Below, piece by piece: positions 3,058 to 54,206 of a stretch of 64,000 nucleotides of DNA (position 1 is its first letter; each line of letters begins with the position of its first letter). Made by a program: the position numbers and the translations under genes. The notes beneath the pieces are model-generated. The model was not told where the DNA came from. It searched no databases and saw nothing but the letters and a program-made list of their open reading frames with translations. The DNA comes from Dehalococcoidia bacterium (lineage in GTDB: Bacteria; Chloroflexota; Dehalococcoidia; Lucifugimonadales; Australimonadaceae): the NCBI GenBank assembly GCA_963579135.1, contig CAUZFB010000001.1, forward strand, positions 51,548 to 115,547, written 5' to 3'.

Positions 3058-3134
3058 TGGTGGGCCACCCAAGAATCGAACTTGGGACCTCAGTCTTATC
3101 AGGACTGCGCTCTAACCGACTGAGCTAGTGGCCC
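3058..3134 (-). tRNA. tRNA-Ile (anticodon GAU), CCA encoded
   Basis: The reverse complement reads GGGCCAC TA GCTC AGTCGGTTA GAGC G CAGTC CTGATAA GACTG AGGTC CCAAG TTCGATT CTTGG GTGGCCC A CCA, a full cloverleaf with anticodon loop CU-GAU-AA. Confidence 0.95.
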
Positions 3135-3214
3135 ACGCAGGAACAGATTATACATCCCGTGCGGGGGGGGAAGTCAGAGGCCCAGCCTAATTGGCTGGGC
3201 CTCGCGTGCTTTAG

Positions 3215-3243
3215 CGAGTGAATAGTGGAAGGAAAGAGACGCC
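3215..3243 (-). other. 3' half of the 16S processing stem (pairs with 4940-4967)
   Basis: CGAGTGAATAGTGGAAGGAAAGAGACGCC here is near-perfectly complementary to GGCGCCTTTTCCTTCCACTATTCACTTG at 4940-4967. In the transcript the two form a roughly 28-bp helix bracketing the 16S. Confidence 0.7.
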
Positions 3244-3386
3244 GATAGGAAGTCGCTCGCGGTCCTTCCGAAGAAGGGCTAAAGAGTGAGGTTCTTGTCG
3301 GACGAGGGAGCAGAACTCTACCAATCGTCCAACGCCAACCGAACTCCACGAACGAACCGACCTAGGATTCCCCGAAGGGAACTCCC

Positions 3387-4890
<1,504 letters not shown>

Positions 4891-4939
4891 AAAAATAAAA
4901 AGAATCTCGAAAGATTCATAACGTTCAAAATTGAACGAA

Positions 4940-34526: not shown

Positions 34527-34532
34527 TCTCAA

Positions 34533-34817
34533 CAATGGCCGTGATGGAGATGAGTAGGCAGGTTCCCCGACGAACAGCGAACCGGAGTTGGTGCGAGTCC
34601 GGTGTGTCGGCCCTAGCCGAAGATCCCTCCTGAGCCGTCAGCCGAAACCCTGTTCTTTATCGTCTAGGAGAGGGGGAGTAGACCTGACCGGGGTGCCGCC
34701 CGTTACCAGTGGCGAGAGCGTGTTGGCGCTCTACAGAGTGCTCTCCGGCCGGCCGGAGGGAACGAGGGTGGTACCGCGGGTAATTCGTAACCCGTCCCTT
34801 TTGAGGGACGGTTTTTT
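34533..34817 (+). promoter_or_regulatory. T-box riboswitch leader (tRNA-sensing transcription attenuator)
   Basis: Stem I elements: GA/K-turn (GUGAUGGAG..CUCCUGAGCC), AGUA S-turn, AGCGA bulge, distal loop UUGGUGCGAG. The T-box sequence AGGGTGGTACCGCG is at 34765-34778. Terminator: CCGTCCCT-TTTG-AGGGACGG-TTTTTT at 34792-34817. Confidence 0.85.
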
Positions 34818-34869
34818 GTTGGTCATTTTTCGCCGCTAAATGCGGATGGTGAGTCGAAAAGAGGACACC

Positions 34870-36456
34870 ATGAGTGAATTTACGCTGTACGACACGACTC
34901 TGCGCGATGGTACACAGATGGAGGGGATCAGCCTGTCTGTGGAGGACAAACTGAACATAGCGGAGCGCTTGGATCAGCTGGGGGTGCATTTCATTGAGGG
35001 CGGCTGGCCAGGGTCGAACCCCAAAGACGAGGAGTTCTTCCAACGGGCGAAGGATCTGAAGCTGAGCAATGCGAAAATCGTTGCCTTCGGATCCACGAGG
35101 CGTGCGAATACGCGTCCCGAGGACGACCCGAATCTGCAGGCACTCGTTGACTCCGGCGTGACGGTGGTGACGCTGGTGGGCAAGGCGTCAGATGCGCAAG
35201 TGACGCAGGTACTGGAAACATCGCTGGAGGAGAACCTGGCGATGATCCGGGAGTCAATCGAGTACCTACGGTCGAAGGGGCTGCGGGTGATCTTCGACGC
35301 TGAGCACTTCTTCGACGGCTACGCTGCAAACCAGGAATATGCAATGGCATGCGTGAAGACGGCATCCGAGGCTGGCGCAGAGCAGGTGGTGTTGTGCGAT
35401 ACGAACGGCGGCACGATGCCGGTGGATGTGTTTGCGACGGTGAGCGCAGTGCGGGGTGCGGTGGACGGCGGTATCGGTATCCACTGCCACAACGATGCTG
35501 ATGTGGCGGTGGCGAACAGCATCGCAGCAGTGCAAGCGGGCGCGACACAGGTGCAGGGGACGATCAATGGCTACGGGGAACGCTGCGGCAATGCGAATCT
35601 GGTTTCGGTGATCGCGAATCTGAAGCTGAAATTGGGCATGGATGTGGTGAGCAACGAGCAACTGGGGCACCTGACAGAGGTGCACCGGTTCGTGGCGGAG
35701 CTGGCGAACATGCCACGCAGCCGGTACCAGCCTTACGTGGGCGACAGCGCATTCACGCATAAGGGGGGCCTGCATGCGTCGGCGACGGCGAAGATGGATA
35801 TGGCTTACCAACACATCGAGCCGGGGCTCGTGGGCAATGCGAAGCGCGTTGTGATTTCGGAGATGGCGGGTCGCGCGAACATCGCAATTAAGCTTGAGGA
35901 GCAGGGTCTAACGGCAGATGTGCCGAAAGAACGATTGGGTGATCTTCTGACGCTGGTGAAAACACAGGAGGCGCATGGGTTCCAGTACGAGGGCGCTGAG
36001 GCGTCGTTCCAATTGCTGGTCCGGCGTACGCTGCCGAATTACTCCCGCCCATTCGATCTGGTCGACTACATGGTGGTGATGGAGAAGCGCCGCCGCCAGA
36101 ACAGTTTGCTGGATAACGGAGATGAGACGTTGTGCGAGGCGATGGTGAAGGTGCGCGTGAACGGCGAGGTGATGCATACGGTGGCCGAGGGCAACGGGCC
36201 GGTCAACGCCATCGACGCTGCGCTGCGCAAGGGCCTGATTCAGGCGTACCCGCAGGTGGCGAACGTACAACTAACGGACTACAAGGTCCGCGTGGTGGAG
36301 CAGGGACCGGATGGCACGGGCGCTGTGGTGCGCGTGCTGGTGGAGTCGACGGACGGCGAGCACTACTGGAATACGGTGGGGGCCTCCACGAACATCATCG
36401 AGGCTTCATGGCAGGCGCTCACGGACAGCCTGGAGTACGCGCTTCTCGCGAAGTAA
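34870..36456 (+). CDS. citramalate synthase-type LeuA family enzyme (2-isopropylmalate/citramalate synthase)
   Basis: MSEFTLYDTTLRDGTQMEGISLSVEDKLNIAERLDQLGVHFIEGGWPGSNPKD, HCHND, and a C-terminal LeuA-dimer-like domain. The approximately 529 aa length matches the CimA-type subfamily. Confidence 0.8.
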   Translation: MSEFTLYDTTLRDGTQMEGISLSVEDKLNIAERLDQLGVHFIEGGWPGSNPKDEEFFQRAKDLKLSNAKIVAFGSTRRANTRPEDDPNLQALVDSGVTVVTLVGKASDAQVTQVLETSLEENLAMIRESIEYLRSKGLRVIFDAEHFFDGYAANQEYAMACVKTASEAGAEQVVLCDTNGGTMPVDVFATVSAVRGAVDGGIGIHCHNDADVAVANSIAAVQAGATQVQGTINGYGERCGNANLVSVIANLKLKLGMDVVSNEQLGHLTEVHRFVAELANMPRSRYQPYVGDSAFTHKGGLHASATAKMDMAYQHIEPGLVGNAKRVVISEMAGRANIAIKLEEQGLTADVPKERLGDLLTLVKTQEAHGFQYEGAEASFQLLVRRTLPNYSRPFDLVDYMVVMEKRRRQNSLLDNGDETLCEAMVKVRVNGEVMHTVAEGNGPVNAIDAALRKGLIQAYPQVANVQLTDYKVRVVEQGPDGTGAVVRVLVESTDGEHYWNTVGASTNIIEASWQALTDSLEYALLAK

Positions 36457-48126: not shown

Positions 48127-49596
48127 CTATCCTAGGAAGCGGCGGAGGCGGGCTGCTTCTTCAATATAATGGGGCACGTTGGCGTGTCCGTCACGCTGGA
48201 GACCGGCCCAAATAGCACTGGTAAGCCCTTCGTGGATGCGGTCGATCGAACGACCGTGGCGCATGACGACATCGGAGTAGGCGTCACCGAGCAGGCTGCG
48301 GACGCGGGACTCGTTAGCGTACGTGGCGGCGACAGCGAGGTCGTCGTCAAGGCTAGGGTAGATCTCGCGCACGAACGCGAGATCATCGTCGTCGAGGGCA
48401 GTCATGCCGAGGATCTCGGGCGGGACGCCGATGGAGTAGAGCGACGCAGCGAAGGCGATAGCGCGAGGCAGCGTGACATCGCTGGAGCCGGCGAGGGATC
48501 GTCCATAGCCGAACAGGCCAACGTGCAACTTGCGGTCGCGTCTACGCGGCACGCAGGCGGAAGCTTCCGTGATGAAGGGCACGAGCTTCCGCACGCACTG
48601 CTGGTACTCTGCGGCGAACTTATCGATGATTAGGCGAGCGCGCGCTTCATCGATGGGCTTGGCGGGCGCTTGCTCATGCGCGAGGATCTGCTGGATGCCG
48701 TTACGTACATCGTCAGGCGCGTAGTCGTACTTGAAGGCGGACTGGACGGTGAACGTTTGGATGCTCGGGTACTCGGTGAACGCCCTATCCAGGTTCAGGG
48801 GAGTGAGATGTCCCCGGAACGGGACGGAGCCCGCACCGATGATGGGGTACATGGGCACGCCCAGCTCAACTCCAAGGCGATCTAGCCGCTGCAGGGAGAC
48901 CTGGAGCATGAGCTCCGCGCCGACCATGCCATAGTTGAGCGCGGGGTCGCTGCGGGCGAGGAACACGCGCTGGTACGGCAGGTCGCGCCCGCGGCAGTAA
49001 TCGCGCACGATGGTGTCGGCGGTGAGCATCTGCTCAAGGTCCTCGATTAGGGGAATCATGCGGATCTGCTTGGGGTTGAACTCGCCGATCCAATCTTTGA
49101 CACGGCGGCCGCCGGACATGGCCTGGGTTTCCTGTCCAACGACGAATCGTTCGTAATATTCAGCGATGAGCGCAACCTCATCGCCAGTGGTGGTCATGGG
49201 TAGGATAACCTCTTGGATAGGTGCATCCATGGGGTCGCCGTAGAAGCCGCGGGCGACATCCCACGCTGAGGGGATGCTATGAAGCGCCTCCACCACAGAC
49301 TTGCGCATATCAATCTCGATGGCCGGATTGGGCACGCGCAAGGTGATGGTGCAGTCGGTGCCGAGGCGCCGCTCGTTGCGGAAAAAGTCAGGGTAGTTGG
49401 AGAGAAGTTTCTGGACGACCTGTCCATCGGCGTCCTTGCCCTCGGAATCCCACATCTGCTCATCGCAGCCCATGCCGAAGACATCCACGGCTTCGACGAT
49501 TTCTCCCTCGCCCTTGATGACGCCGTTGACAGCGAAGGGCGGCGGCGATGCGTTGTCGGGATGCTGAGTGCTCATGCACTTGGGAATGAGCGGCAT
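48127..49596 (-). CDS. ppcA: archaeal-type phosphoenolpyruvate carboxylase (PepcA family)
   Basis: MSTQHPDN, EQMWDSEGKD, LLSNYPDFF, VILPMTT, VFLARSDPALNYG, PFRGHL, QSAFKYDY, PRRRDRKLHVGLFGYGR, C-terminal IRRFLG. About 489 aa, not the roughly 900-aa bacterial Ppc. Confidence 0.88.
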   Translation of the reverse strand: MPLIPKCMSTQHPDNASPPPFAVNGVIKGEGEIVEAVDVFGMGCDEQMWDSEGKDADGQVVQKLLSNYPDFFRNERRLGTDCTITLRVPNPAIEIDMRKSVVEALHSIPSAWDVARGFYGDPMDAPIQEVILPMTTTGDEVALIAEYYERFVVGQETQAMSGGRRVKDWIGEFNPKQIRMIPLIEDLEQMLTADTIVRDYCRGRDLPYQRVFLARSDPALNYGMVGAELMLQVSLQRLDRLGVELGVPMYPIIGAGSVPFRGHLTPLNLDRAFTEYPSIQTFTVQSAFKYDYAPDDVRNGIQQILAHEQAPAKPIDEARARLIIDKFAAEYQQCVRKLVPFITEASACVPRRRDRKLHVGLFGYGRSLAGSSDVTLPRAIAFAASLYSIGVPPEILGMTALDDDDLAFVREIYPSLDDDLAVAATYANESRVRSLLGDAYSDVVMRHGRSIDRIHEGLTSAIWAGLQRDGHANVPHYIEEAARLRRFLG

Positions 49597-49668
49597 GGCG
49601 TCTGCTCCAAGGGGGCTGATAGAGGCATGATACGGCGGGAATGGGGATGACGCATAACCATTTTACTG

Positions 49669-49719
49669 GCAAACCAGTTTGCAACAAAACTTGACACCCT
49701 GTTTGCTGCGGACTAAGTT
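49669..49719 (+). promoter_or_regulatory. parA promoter with operator-like repeats
   Basis: GCAAAC-CA-GTTTGC inverted repeat (49669-49682), TTGACA (49691-49696), a third GTTTGC (49701-49706) inside the 17-nt spacer, and TAAGTT (49714-49719). Confidence 0.5.
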
Positions 49720-49806
49720 ATGGGTCGTCCAGAGTCGAACCCAGGCGTGCTAGCCGGGTATGCCAGTCATGTAACGAGGAGGGTACCTCCACGAGGGCAC
49801 GAGTTT

Positions 49807-50595
49807 ATGGTAGGCGAATCACAGCCAACAATCATAGCGGTCGCGAACCAAAAAGGTGGGGTCGCAAAGACCACCACGTCAGTCAACCTAACGGCGCTTC
49901 TGGCGGCAGCGGGCAAGCGCGTATTGCTAGTGGACATGGATCCCCAGGGCGGCTGTGCCGTGTGCCTGGGAATGGACACGACGACGATGGAACGATCGAT
50001 CTACGATGCGCTGGTGAAGCAGGACGTGGGGATCGCCGATGTGGTGGTGCCTACGGCGTTCGCTTTCGATCTGGCGCCGGCGAATATCGATCTGGCGGGC
50101 GCTGAGATCGAACTGAAGCAGGCGCTGGCCGCGGAAACGGTGCTGCAACGCAAGCTGAAACCGATGCTCGATCGCTACGACTACGTAGTAATAGATACGC
50201 CGCCTTCGTTGGGCATCCTGACAGTGAATAGCCTGACGGCGGCCGACAAGGTGCTCATTCCTATTTCAGCCGAGTACATGGCGCTGCGCGGTCTGCGTAT
50301 GCTGCTGGACACTCTGGAGAACGTGCGCGAGGTGACGAACCCGGGCCTGAACATCATGGGAATCCTGGCGACGCGCTACGATGGGCGAACGATCAATAGC
50401 CGAGAGGTTTACGCGTATCTCCGCGAGTTCTGCGAGCGCGAGGGGATCCACCTCTTCCCGCAAGTCATCAAGCAATCTGTCCGGTTCGCTGAAGCGCCCG
50501 GATATCAGACACCGGTGGTTCTTTGGCGCAAGGATCTGGATGGAGCGAAGCAGTACCAGAAGGTCGCGGAGGAGGTGATTGATGGCAAAGTCTAA
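49807..50595 (+). CDS. parA: ParA/Soj-family ATPase
   Basis: IIAVANQKGGVAKTTT deviant Walker A, VVIDTPPSLG. 262 aa with no N-terminal HTH domain. Confidence 0.85.
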   Translation: MVGESQPTIIAVANQKGGVAKTTTSVNLTALLAAAGKRVLLVDMDPQGGCAVCLGMDTTTMERSIYDALVKQDVGIADVVVPTAFAFDLAPANIDLAGAEIELKQALAAETVLQRKLKPMLDRYDYVVIDTPPSLGILTVNSLTAADKVLIPISAEYMALRGLRMLLDTLENVREVTNPGLNIMGILATRYDGRTINSREVYAYLREFCEREGIHLFPQVIKQSVRFAEAPGYQTPVVLWRKDLDGAKQYQKVAEEVIDGKV

Positions 50596-50920
50596 GCGTC
50601 CAGCGTTCGTATTCCCAGAGCTGGAAAGCCGGGGACGACGTACAATTCTCCGTTCCACGGAAGAGGTGTCTGCCGAATTGGACGCGCTGCACCAGGCCGA
50701 GGAGGAACCCAAGGAGCGAGTGAAGGTGACGTACCGGTTCCAGCCTGAGGCGGTGGAGGCGGTAGAGGATATACGCCGCATCCTTCGCCGACAGTATGGG
50801 GTCCGAAAGGTGAACCGCGAGGATATCGCGCAGGCAGCGGTGCTTGAGGCGCTGCGTGACTTGGAGAGGAACGGCGCTTCAAGTTACTTGGCCCGCGAAT
50901 TTGGCGAAGCTGGAAGCTAA
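50582..50920 (+). CDS. small basic/acidic partner protein of ParA (possible ribbon-helix-helix, ParG-like)
   Basis: 112 aa, overlapping the parA stop by 14 nt. Basic N-terminus MAKSKRPAFVF. The central KVTYRFQPEAVEAVEDIRRILRR fits a strand-helix-helix pattern. No ParB/HTH domain is recognisable. Confidence 0.45.
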   Translation: MAKSKRPAFVFPELESRGRRTILRSTEEVSAELDALHQAEEEPKERVKVTYRFQPEAVEAVEDIRRILRRQYGVRKVNREDIAQAAVLEALRDLERNGASSYLAREFGEAGS

Positions 50921-50934
50921 CCCCCGGATGCCCC

Positions 50935-51113
50935 GGACTCGGCGGAGGATCGAGCGCGCATGAGGTCGGGGCGAGCTCTCGAATCTCTTGGCTTCGCCGC
51001 TGGGGCTGAAGGTTGCTCGGCGCTCCGGGGAAGGGCACTAAGAGAGTTCATTGGCTTGGAGGGACCTGATGGATTCCCTTCGAGTGACTCAGGACAGGCT
51101 CGCGGGCAGCGCC
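50935..51113 (+). repeat. copy C of the dispersed mosaic repeat family (full length)
   Basis: GGACTCGGCGGAGG...GCGAGCTCTCGAATCTCTTGG...TTGCTCGGCGCTCCGGGGAAGGG...TTCCCTTCGAGTGACTCAGGACAGGCTCGCGGG. Confidence 0.7.
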
Positions 51114-51233
51114 TGGTGCCAGAGTGACGTTAATCGCAACGGATATTGCCCCGCAGCGGCATGTGGTGTGGGGCACCCTTGCCTAGGGGTACTCCGGCTT
51201 CGCGGTCGCAAACAACGTTCATCGAAATTACAG

Positions 51234-52160
51234 CTAGGCAGGGATGAACGGGGCTCGGGAGCCATCGAAAAGGAGGCTTGAGGGTAGGAGTTTGGCGAGT
51301 TCTTCGACGGTCCATTTGCCTTTGTTGCGCCAGTCTTTGTTGATGGTGCGTACCTCGGTGGGGTGCGAGTAGACGCCGATCTTGCCGGAGCCGGACCGGA
51401 AGATGAGGCCGTTGACACCTGCGGCGAGGTCCGAGGCGAGATAGACGACTATGGGCGAGACGTGCTCGCCACCTGGGCGGTCAGTCGTGAGTTCGTCACC
51501 GGCTTTCTTGGCGGCGAGGCCCGCGTCCGCGAGCATCTCCGGGTGACGATAGTTGTCGAAGGCGCGGGTCTGGGCCATTGGGGCGATAGCGTTGACGGTG
51601 ATGCCGTGGTTCCGCAACTCGAACGCAAGATCCCAGGTGAGACTAACGATTGCACCCTTGGCTGCCGCATAGGCTGGCCGGCCTTCCGGGTTGCGCCACT
51701 GGCTGGATGCGGTGTTGATGATGCGGCCCGCACCCTGCTCCATCATGATGGGCACCGCGTGGCGGCAAGTGTTGAACGTGCCCTTGAGGTGCACACCCAC
51801 GACGGTGTCGAAGTCGGCCTCGTTGATTTGATGGAACAGTCCATCGCGAGCGACACCTGCGTTGTTCATGAGAATGTCGAGCCTGCCATAGTTCTCGATA
51901 GCAGTGCCGATGAGCTGCTCGGCCTGGCCAAAGTCGGCGACGGAGTGGTAGTCGGCAACTGCTTCGCCACCGTTCTCGCGAATCAACGCGACGACCTCAT
52001 CGGCCGGGGCTCGCGTGCCTCCAGTGCCGTTGCGCTCCACGCCAGGGTCGTTGACGACGACTTTGGCGCCCTCGGCTGCGAGGGCCATGGCGTGGGCACG
52101 ACCGATGCCTCGCCCGCTGCCGGTGACGATCGCTACTTTATTTTTCAGATATTCGCCCAT
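51234..52160 (-). CDS. SDR family oxidoreductase (308 aa, extended C-terminus), paralog 1
   Basis: VAIVTGSGRGIGRAHA, NNAG, YAAAKGAIVSL. About two thirds of positions match the next gene by eye. Confidence 0.85.
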   Translation of the reverse strand: MGEYLKNKVAIVTGSGRGIGRAHAMALAAEGAKVVVNDPGVERNGTGGTRAPADEVVALIRENGGEAVADYHSVADFGQAEQLIGTAIENYGRLDILMNNAGVARDGLFHQINEADFDTVVGVHLKGTFNTCRHAVPIMMEQGAGRIINTASSQWRNPEGRPAYAAAKGAIVSLTWDLAFELRNHGITVNAIAPMAQTRAFDNYRHPEMLADAGLAAKKAGDELTTDRPGGEHVSPIVVYLASDLAAGVNGLIFRSGSGKIGVYSHPTEVRTINKDWRNKGKWTVEELAKLLPSSLLFDGSRAPFIPA

Positions 52161-52210
52161 GATTTTTCTCTTTTGCGCTGCGCAGATTGGCCACTTCTAG
52201 GATCCGGCGT

Positions 52211-53134
52211 CTAGGGAATGAACGGGGCCTTCGTATCGCCTGCAAGCAGGGTATTCGGAAGGATGGTTTCGAGCTCGGCGATGGGCCAGGTGCCTTCGGT
52301 CTTCCAATCTCGATAGATGGTATTCATCTCGGTGGGGTGGCTGTACCGGCCCACCTTGCCGGAGCCGACCCTAAACACGATGCCATTGATGTCCTTGGCC
52401 TGCTCAGACGCCAGGTAGACGACGGTCGGAGAGACGAACTCGGGTGCGGCGCGGTTGGTGCCCTGCTCGGCGGGGTCCTTCTTCCTCTCGAGGCCGGCAT
52501 CCACGAGCATGTCGCGATAGGCAGTATCGCCGAAGGCCCGGGTAGCACCCATGGGTGCGATGGAGTTGACGGTGATCCCGTGGTTGCGGAGCTCGAAGGC
52601 GAGCGCCCAGGTGAGGCTGACGATGCCACCCTTGGCGGCGCCGTAGTTGGCTCGCCCTTCAGGGTTCCGCCATTGGCTGGATGAGGTGTTGATGATGCGG
52701 CCGTAGCCCTGCTCCATCATGACTGGGACAGCGTGATGGCAAGTGTTGAAGGTGCCCTTCAGGTGCACGCCAATGACATTGTCCCAGTCTTCCTCGGTTA
52801 GCTCCCAGAAGAGTTGGTGGCGAAAGATGCCGGCGTTGTTGACGAGTATGTCGAGCCGACCATAGTTGTCGACTGCGGCTGCGATGATACGGCCAGCGGC
52901 GGCGTAGTCAGCGACCGACTCGTAGTTGGCGACAGCCTCGCCACCACGTTCGCGAATCAAGGCGACGACTTCGTCGGCGGGGGCGCCTGTGCCGCCCGTT
53001 CCGTCTCGCTCAACGCCGAGGTCGTTGACGACGACGGAGGCTCCTTCAGCGGCGAGGGCGATGGCGTGTTCACGTCCTAGGCCCCTCCCTGCGCCGGTGA
53101 CGATGGCTACGCGGCCTTTGAGCAGATCACCCAT
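52211..53134 (-). CDS. SDR family oxidoreductase (307 aa), paralog 2
   Basis: VAIVTGAGRGLGREHA, NNAG, YGAAKGGIVSL. Tandem paralog of 51234..52160. Confidence 0.85.
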   Translation of the reverse strand: MGDLLKGRVAIVTGAGRGLGREHAIALAAEGASVVVNDLGVERDGTGGTGAPADEVVALIRERGGEAVANYESVADYAAAGRIIAAAVDNYGRLDILVNNAGIFRHQLFWELTEEDWDNVIGVHLKGTFNTCHHAVPVMMEQGYGRIINTSSSQWRNPEGRANYGAAKGGIVSLTWALAFELRNHGITVNSIAPMGATRAFGDTAYRDMLVDAGLERKKDPAEQGTNRAAPEFVSPTVVYLASEQAKDINGIVFRVGSGKVGRYSHPTEMNTIYRDWKTEGTWPIAELETILPNTLLAGDTKAPFIP

Positions 53135-53828: not shown

Positions 53829-54206
53829 TTAATCGCTGGAGGGAGCGGAGGAGGAGGAAGAGCTGCTGCTGCTGGAGTTGTCGCTGCTGGAAGGCGACGA
53901 GATGCTTGAGCTCTCGGAGCTGATGGAGGCTGACGTGGAGGAGTCAGAGGACGAGTCCGACGAATCTGACGATGACGAACTGGACGAAGACCCGGTGGAG
54001 GTGTTGGCTCCGCCGCTGGATTTCTCTTTCCGCGCGTAGTCAGTGGTATAGAACCCGGACCCCTTGTAAATCACCGGGGGGGCGTGGAACTGGCGCCTAG
54101 CAATGTGCTGGCACTTGGGGCATTCGTATCGGGGCTCACTGTTGAAGCTCTGCCGAACGTCGAATTCGTTCTTGCAGTTGTCGCAACGGTATCCGTAGGT
54201 AGGCAC
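53829..54206 (-). CDS. FmdB/CxxC zinc-ribbon family protein with a roughly 60-aa Ser-rich tail
   Basis: [17 protein letters not shown]...YECPKCQ is a typical FmdB N-terminus. The C-terminal half is almost pure S/D/T. Confidence 0.75.

Follow-up and report, generated by a model that had tools for sequence, protein, structure and literature searches.

A chromosomal ParA and small-partner gene pair of Dehalococcoidia, probably a type Ib-like partition cassette of plasmid ancestry

Type Ib partition loci, such as ParF–ParG–parH of TP228, delta–omega of pSM19035 and par2 of pB171, combine a small Walker-type ParA that lacks a helix-turn-helix (HTH) domain with a partner that has a flexible basic tail and a dimeric DNA-binding C-terminal domain. 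The partner gene lies directly downstream, and short direct or inverted repeats are found at the operon's own promoter. Plasmids have systems of a ParA and a small adaptor of the ribbon-helix-helix (RHH) type, and among chromosomes such systems are known in archaea (SegAB). Here we describe parA and the gene for a 112-amino-acid partner in a 64,000-nucleotide stretch of a Dehalococcoidia bacterium contig (CAUZFB010000001.1, positions 51,548–115,547; the window, to which positions refer unless another locus is named). We consider it probable that this locus is a type Ib-like ParA cassette for partition and autoregulation that descends from plasmids and has become fixed on the chromosome in a clade of Dehalococcoidia. 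The type of machine (ParA, small adaptor and operator/centromere) is familiar; the adaptor family has not been described before, the locus is chromosomal, and its ancestry can be traced to plasmids.

The window pair resembles type Ib loci in having an HTH-less ParA, a small basic-tailed partner encoded downstream and promoter repeats in both orientations. It differs from them in three respects: neither sequence nor fold searches detect a match of the partner to ParG, omega or CopG; its ParA is similar to Soj (about 45%) and nests within ParAs that carry an HTH_17 domain; and the locus is chromosomal and vertically inherited.

In Sulfolobus, the chromosomal SegAB system consists of a ParA and a partner of about 110 amino acids, SegB, the unstructured N terminus of which activates the SegA ATPase (PMC8682754). 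Beyond this tail, SegB is built in the order alpha1–beta1–alpha2–alpha3–alpha4 (RHH), and its binding sites are found immediately ahead of the gene for the ATPase (PMC8682754). The window partner, also of about 110 amino acids, has a comparable predicted order of disordered tail, helix, strand and three helices (AlphaFold2, AF2). However, the window locus is bacterial, no SegB chain occurs among the PDB profile matches of its partner at E ≤ 10, and its ParA matches 7dut, which we take to be SegA, at 1.5e-20, as against 1e-53 for bacterial Soj. As judged by these comparisons, the pair is not SegAB by homology and the likeness is one of architecture only, a resemblance that is either convergent or very remote.

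True homologues occur in uncharacterized Chloroflexota mobile-element cassettes of an HTH_17-ParA, a partner and a rep gene, with ParA 60–72% and partner 37–50% identical to the window proteins. The partner N-terminal peptide (N-peptide), the partner C-terminal domain (C-domain), the gene overlap and the DNA motif GTTT[G/T]CT[G/T]G are common to these cassettes and the window. Their ParAs, however, carry HTH_17, their partners have long Q/N/P/E-rich linkers with embedded motifs, and a rep-like gene mostly comes next, whereas neither the HTH nor the long linker remains in the window version, and no rep gene adjoins it. From type Ia systems the window pair is set apart by a ParA without HTH and a partner without ParBc, although its nearest ParA relatives do have HTH_17.

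A bacterial chromosome has kept such a module over long evolution, in at least 17 species and with protein conservation that matches or exceeds that of an enzyme of central metabolism encoded nearby. The adaptor family now has a candidate motif for DNA recognition, and the locus raises hypotheses on chromosome organization in an uncultured, environmentally abundant class.

Gene anatomy, conservation and partner architecture

The two genes and the parts of the partner are arranged as follows:

49807–50595, plus strand: parA, ATG to stop, 262 amino acids, deviant-Walker-A ATPase
50566–50573, plus strand: Shine–Dalgarno-like GGAGGAGG, within the 3′ end of parA, 8–9 nt before the partner ATG
50582–50920, plus strand: partner gene, ATG to stop, 112 amino acids, protein starting MAKSKRPAFVFPELE
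50582–50656, plus strand: partner residues 1–25, basic N-peptide (KRPxFxFPELExRGRRxILR), predicted to be disordered, putative ParA-contact and ATPase-activating tail
50657–50710, plus strand: partner residues 26–43, short helix and acidic linker, with an AF2 helix at 26–39
50711–50920, plus strand: partner residues 44–112 and stop, C-domain, putative RHH-like dimeric DNA-binding domain

The reading frames overlap by 14 nt. A sequence-only reading of this DNA had reported a 262-amino-acid ParA with the Walker motif KGGVAKTT and no N-terminal DNA-binding domain, together with a 112-amino-acid partner that overlaps it by 14 nt and has no ParB or HTH domain. Both open reading frames (ORFs) and an AAA_31 match bear this out, and the window partner has no Pfam or NCBIfam match, neither ParB nor HTH. 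The word 'orphan' used there for ParA is apt only in the sense that the locus has no ParB.

The ParA Walker A motif occupies residues 15–22, signature lysine included, and the ATPase core begins at residue 8 with no N-terminal HTH or extension. Pfam finds AAA_31 (3.3e-59) and CbiA (3.7e-24), and NCBIfam agrees; with KGGxxK[ST], the signature lysine and the AAA_31/CbiA fold, the protein is a deviant-Walker-A ATPase of the ParA/MinD type. The absence of an N-terminal DNA-binding domain, a trait of type Ib ParAs, extends to the orthologues, which are 254–275 amino acids long and none of which has PF12728. The best PDB matches are chromosomal Soj-type ParAs (8ray, 1wcv and 6iub, 1e-47 to 1e-53), with a core identity to Soj of about 44–46%; McdA (1e-19), 7dut (the S. 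solfataricus 'SOJ protein' of its PDB entry) and the delta protein are all far weaker. Arg194 (YDGRT) aligns with the Arg of FDSRA in the 8ray ParA and with an Arg in Soj sequences; in B. subtilis Soj, R189 is the basic residue for non-specific DNA binding. The similarity to Soj and the aligned basic residue place the window protein, by alignment, among Soj-like DNA-segregating ParAs.

We surveyed one genome per species of the Genome Taxonomy Database (GTDB) and found 18 loci that encode the partner. ParA lies directly upstream in all 18, at 63–92% identity; the overlap is 8–23 nt, mostly 14, in 17 orthologous loci and the window. The earlier interpretation had been staked on the small ORF having homologues beside ParA genes in relatives, as it does throughout this survey. 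Partner homologues form 117 clusters at 54–95% identity, all from Chloroflexota/Dehalococcoidia metagenome bins, and in a large protein collection the ParA orthologues (254–275 amino acids) are 70–91% identical. Across species, ParA and partner share 72–92% identity, as against 63–92% for the neighbouring phosphoenolpyruvate carboxylase (PEPC). The partner is under strong purifying selection, with ratios of non-synonymous to synonymous substitution (dN/dS) of 0.03–0.13 and dS saturated. The PEPC gene is divergent from the pair in 11 loci, and a pair of short-chain dehydrogenase (SDR) genes lies downstream in four. The pair, along with its overlap and promoter block, is a conserved, vertically inherited chromosomal fixture in uncultured Dehalococcoidia, kept in 17–18 species genomes.

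The partner N-peptide aligns to the consensus KRPxFxFPELExRGRxAILR, in which R6, P7, F11, P12, E13, L14, G18, R19, L23 and R24 are invariant, and has a predicted local distance difference test score (pLDDT) of 53–60 in the AF2 model. Its basic, disordered character agrees with the general rule that ParA/MinD partners address their ATPase via a charged, disordered N terminus (PMC10241942). The linker that follows is short in the window protein, whereas in mobile-element members it has 30–110 residues and is rich in Q, N, P and E. The C-domain is modelled as an extended segment, KVTYRF, and helices at 55–72, 79–100 and 102–110, with pLDDT 93–98 for residues 51–110 (AF2, input of 42 diverse sequences); across these 42 members, K48 is invariant, and T50 and Y51 are nearly so. 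It is probably an RHH-like dimer, a fold that we infer, rather than prove, from the order of the predicted elements.

The same N-peptide precedes at least six other C-domain classes besides that of the window. The three of these classes that have a genomic context on record all follow an HTH_17-ParA, and hhalign matches most of the other classes to the window class in register (94%, 93.5%, 82% and 48% for four of them); these sibling classes have no significant Pfam match. The alignments thus describe a modular partner, in which one N-peptide is combined with C-domains of at least seven remotely related classes; its architecture is a single ParA-specific tail and a domain that can be exchanged and is probably specific for DNA. 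No description of the adaptor family exists in the form of a Pfam, NCBIfam or PDB entry, and literature on ParA/RHH in Chloroflexi, ParB in Dehalococcoidia and TTHA0139 (the best PDB profile match, discussed below) yielded nothing relevant.

Plasmid relatives of the cassette

The next tier of ParA proteins, at 60–72% identity, consists almost entirely of 313-amino-acid proteins with an N-terminal HTH_17 (PF12728). A neighbour-joining tree with two Soj sequences as the root places the HTH-less ParAs in one clade, which includes a single HTH_17 protein (P0282) and is nested within HTH_17-ParA diversity. By this nesting, the window ParA is an HTH-less offshoot of the Chloroflexota HTH_17-ParA lineage and not a canonical Soj. 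Clustering with an origin-type Soj beside ParB, which the earlier reading had named as the result that would speak against it, was not seen: the nearest non-orthologues are HTH_17-ParA fusions on plasmid-like elements. The contig of P0282 (L024, 1–1243) encodes an HTH_17-ParA that is 72% identical to that of the window, with a short-linker partner, and its promoter, by reading of the sequence, resembles the chromosomal operator/promoter block described below. L024 is a likely evolutionary intermediate.

A profile search of 1.8 billion representatives returned 126 related small proteins. In all retrievable contexts, the small gene directly follows and overlaps a ParA gene, and the ParA is an HTH_17-ParA wherever it is complete. 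Most of these relatives have a replication-initiator-like gene next, or mobile-element genes around them. The rep-like genes encode Phage_rep_O (L020), HTH_36/RepA_N (L022 and L025) or DnaA_N (L018 and L023), and SSB, FtsK/SpoIIIE, an antirepressor and Replic_Relax are encoded on one contig. A circular 55-kb plasmid (NZ_CP128403.1, L025) of the cultured Ca. Chlorohelix allophototropha has the cassette, with ParA 60% and partner 37% identical to those of the window. The same plasmid has two further small AAA-ATPase genes (L025, 729–2908), the next gene being annotated as 'hypothetical protein' in one case and as 'CopG family transcriptional regulator' in the other, and from this annotation it would have up to three ParA-type cassettes.

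The long-linker family occurs in none of the IMG/VR viral contigs, so that plasmids or integrative conjugative elements are likelier hosts than phages. Taken together, the relatives point to a history in which plasmid cassettes with an HTH_17-ParA appear to have given rise to an HTH-less chromosomal copy. These plasmid parA–partner–rep modules, together with a DNA motif that tracks the partner C-domain class, support the type Ib-like interpretation that the sequence-only reading had offered. An archaeal origin of the pair together with PEPC is ruled out, ParA being much closer to bacterial Soj than to 7dut.

Operator repeats, coding-sequence motifs and a proposed mechanism

Upstream of parA lies a block with the following parts:

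49658–49721, plus strand: conserved promoter/operator block, cross-species consensus CCAGTTTGCTGGCAAAACAGTTTGCAAcAAATCTTGACAtCagGnTTGCcG....aTAGCGT
49669–49682, no strand assigned: inverted repeat GCAAAC-CA-GTTTGC directly before the −35, with GCAAAC at 49669–49674 and GTTTGC at 49677–49682
49691–49696, plus strand: −35, TTGACA, with CTTGAC kept in 16 of 17 aligned loci
49701–49709, plus strand: third motif copy, GTTTGCTGC, in the 17-nt spacer, with GTTTGC at 49701–49706, 8/9 against GTTT[G/T]CT[G/T]G
49714–49719, plus strand: −10-like TAAGTT, 3/6 against TATAAT

The promoter TTGACA-17-TAAGTT, with GCAAAC-CA-GTTTGC before it and a third GTTTGC in its spacer, had already been noticed in the initial inspection of the sequence. 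The adjective 'strong' given to it there was too generous: the −10 agrees with TATAAT at only three of six positions, and a consensus promoter/terminator scan of 49400–51400 called none. Both the −35 and a TAnnnT −10 are nevertheless conserved across relatives, which have TAGCGT or TAGGTT at an equal distance. At the position of the inverted repeat, relatives have TTTGC-TG-GCAAA-ACAG-TTTGC, and the third copy is conserved as (G)nTTGC. Over 65 columns and 16 species, mean pairwise identity of the block is 64%, as against 27–33% in flanking columns and 44% at ParA four-fold degenerate sites. GTTTGC occurs 22 times in the window, with 27 expected, and is therefore not enriched overall, so that its three copies within 38 nt (chance about 2e-3 by our own estimate) constitute a local cluster. 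The block stays with parA where PEPC is not upstream (L005 and L017 have the 3′ end of a coding region there), and a role as the PEPC promoter is ruled out by this persistence.

Similar repeats accompany the plasmid relatives. On the Chlorohelix plasmid, motifs of the TTCTGGAA/TTCTTGAA type cluster in two places, ahead of parA and in the 3′-terminal part of the partner gene (12 found, 2.2 expected), and the extended plasmid motif GTTTTCTGGAATT resembles the chromosomal operator AGTTTGCTGGCAA. The joint motif GTTT[G/T]CT[G/T]G is strongly enriched in the plasmid stretch (L025), with six copies where 0.68 are expected and no shuffle yielding as many. Independent tests were provided by L019 (4 copies against 0.07 expected), L026 (6 against 0.07), L027 (5 against 0.06), L028 (3 against 0.09) and L021 (2 copies); the first four are strongly enriched, with every shuffle falling short of the number found. 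Seven chromosomal loci have just one copy at a distance of up to about 6 kb from the partner gene, namely that in the promoter block. Two HTH_17-ParA loci with a different partner C-domain, used as controls, have no copy in the par region. In the window operator, approximate copies lie on the plus strand at 49661–49669 (7/9), 49677–49685 (6/9) and, in the spacer, 49701–49709, and on the minus strand at 49666–49674 (7/9).

Elsewhere in the window, an exact 12-mer, ACAGTTTGCTGG, matches the operator consensus at 36101–36112, within ORF 34840–36456; the par locus is 13.6 kb away. This 12-mer has the sole exact 9-mer motif copy in the window and could be a chance occurrence or a secondary site.

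In the mobile-element relatives, copies of the motif lie inside the partner gene. The linker and C-terminal tail of the partner carry 3–6 copies in each of the following:

L019, 216–594
L026, 307–668
L027, 347–809
L028, 1575–1859
L025, 7148–7426

Non-coding copies precede the −35 in L025 and L028. The copies within partner genes occur in all three frames and on both strands: the motif is read as PEN, PAN or QEN in frame 0, as SRKL, SSKL or ARKP in frame 1 and as NQKT in frame 2, and on the other strand as KFSG. An 8-nt tandem, CCAGAAAACCAGAAAAC, encodes PENQKT. This independence from reading frame argues that selection acts on the DNA. The 'G-x-PENQ' low-complexity peptide repeats of these relatives look like translated arrays of putative DNA binding sites. 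In a linked reading, centromere-like repeats would be written into the partner coding sequence of the mobile-element relatives, the 'PENQ' linker being a translated site array. The presence of the motif within coding sequence is the most unusual feature that we encountered, and protein-binding DNA repeats may in these plasmid relatives shape a disordered protein linker, a possible case of dual coding.

The motif tracks the C-domain class and the operator persists in species with an HTH-less ParA, which together suggest that the partner, and not the HTH of ParA, reads the motif; in the window, it probably binds the GTTTGC-type repeats of its own promoter. Alternatively, another factor such as an HTH_17 protein could read the repeats, leaving the partner as an ATPase activator or adaptor without DNA specificity. 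The ParA of most relatives has an HTH_17 that could bind the operator by analogy with type Ia ParAs, and L024 combines the HTH with a chromosomal-type operator. With the operator kept in at least 16 species that have an HTH-less ParA, and the motif missing from the par region of both control loci, we regard this alternative as very unlikely.

The DNA binding, ATPase stimulation and cellular segregation role that we infer for the partner would fit together as follows. The sigma-70-like promoter would drive parA and, via translational coupling, the 112-amino-acid adaptor, C-domain dimers of which would bind the GTTTGC-type repeats that abut the −35 and lie in the spacer. On these repeats the adaptor would repress the operon and build a small nucleoprotein complex. 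Its disordered basic N-peptide could then contact nucleoid-bound ParA–ATP dimers and trigger ATP hydrolysis, and the resulting ParA gradient would move or position the DNA that bears the sites.

Several results weigh against a type Ib-like cassette. No RHH protein, nor any other DNA-binding protein, matches the partner significantly in sequence or fold. When three partner alignments were searched as profiles against the PDB, nothing significant emerged, the best match being TTHA0139 (E = 0.083, then 0.031), itself an unannotated protein of unknown function. The AF2 model is of a monomer only, and the strand comes out as coil. The window operator has only degenerate 9-mers (6–8/9) at three or four sites, which is small for a centromere, and the motif is not enriched elsewhere in the 64 kb. 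GTTT[G/T]CT[G/T]G was set post hoc from L025 and the chromosomal operator, and the correlation between motif and C-domain has two loci only as negative controls. Further fold searches gave the same picture. Among the 42 diverse members, Pfam and PHROGs returned one RHH_1 match (E = 0.0014) and one CopG-like phrog, none of them significant. In hhalign, probabilities against ParG, omega, Arc, Mnt, CopG and ParD were at most 1.5%, no better than those for the controls Cro, Fis, HU and Rop. Foldseek gave only E > 1 for both AF2 models against the PDB and for the first model against BFVD.

The lack of a recognizable DNA-binding domain in the partner would also suit a role in positioning protein cargo, as in McdAB, PpfA or ParC, in which the C-domain binds a protein assembly instead of DNA. 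Like McdAB, the window pair consists of a ParA-type ATPase and a small partner with a disordered N terminus; such a terminus joined to a helical domain is seen in many adaptors (PMC10241942), and the pair does not occupy an origin-type gidB/parB site. Unlike McdAB, however, the partner has homologues that are plasmid-borne beside rep genes. A partner at home in plasmid parA–partner–rep modules must have DNA as its cargo, and this is our main argument against an McdAB-like role. The tracking of C-domain class by a DNA motif also speaks for DNA, as do the signature lysine of ParA and its match to Soj (1e-53) over McdA (1e-19); no microcompartment genes or conserved candidate cargo genes lie near the pair. 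The type Ib-like reading is favoured over the McdAB-like alternative, and protein cargo is the least probable of the explanations that we considered.

The plasmid ancestry could instead point to a domesticated relic, either no more than an autoregulated unit or an incompatibility or exclusion determinant against related Chloroflexota plasmids, with no part in positioning the chromosome. That ancestry is clear, the three or four degenerate sites all lie at the promoter, and no rep gene stands beside the cassette in the window. A relic would hardly be expected, however, to keep all ATPase motifs intact, to have ParA and partner conserved as strongly as PEPC or more so (72–92% versus 63–92%), or to hold a syntenic position in at least 17 species, which would be unusual for a mere remnant. 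We consider this explanation quite improbable.

Chromosomal setting and neighbouring features

In the window, the neighbours of the pair encode Tex, a thiolase, an amidohydrolase, PEPC, two SDRs, Dtd, NadE, RecA and RNase Y; a 16S rRNA gene is present as well. These housekeeping neighbours mark the locus as chromosome, not plasmid or island, and, with the conserved synteny, rule out an integrated mobile element in the window. A setting among chromosomal housekeeping genes and away from gidB/parB had been described beforehand, as had the divergent archaeal-type PEPC, which Pfam identifies as PF14010 (2.5e-163); both descriptions hold. Related bins include Ca. Australimonas (GTDB order UBA2963).

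ParABS (Soj–Spo0J–parS) is approached by the window pair in the ParA, with about 44–46% identity to Soj and the aligned Arg. The partner, however, has no ParB/Srx or HTH domain, and the locus is not beside gidB. Within the 64 kb, tblastn with Spo0J/ParB queries found no Spo0J-like ORF, no second ParA is present and parS matches are not beyond chance. The cassette might, in place of ParABS, be the chromosome segregation machine of the clade, a bacterial counterpart of SegAB with a few GTTTGC-type sites at the promoter and perhaps scattered ACAGTTTGCTGG-like sites; we think this unlikely. If ParABS is absent from these genomes, the cassette would be a bacterial analogue of SegAB.

Plus-strand GC skew is positive nearly throughout the window (1–64000), about +0.13 on average and with a steadily rising cumulative curve, despite ORFs on both strands; related loci of other species are near zero. 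There is no switch in skew, and hence neither an origin nor a terminus in the window. At 3058–4895 (minus strand), tRNA-Ile(GAT) comes after a 16S rRNA gene with no adjoining 23S rRNA detected, an unlinked rRNA arrangement, and the 16S rRNA gene is on the strand opposite to the leading strand suggested by the skew.

Just past the partner gene, at 50921–51030, lies an approximately 100-bp unit that occurs once in the window; in the closest relative (L001, 6341–6746) it forms a 4.1-copy tandem array with 91% matches. The unit has no GTTTGC motif, folds no better than shuffles (z = 0.67) and has no repeat elsewhere in the window. It is followed at 51234–53134 (minus strand) by the two SDR genes, tandem paralogues that are 67% identical and are kept downstream in four related loci. 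Farther upstream, a T-box leader (34532–34802; 96.5 bits, barely over the gathering score) precedes the 538-amino-acid ORF at 34840–36456. On the other side of the pair, the gene at 53829–54206 (minus strand) encodes a small Cys-rich protein with two CxxC pairs and the look of a zinc ribbon, the C-terminal tail of which, about 60 residues long, is extremely rich in serine.

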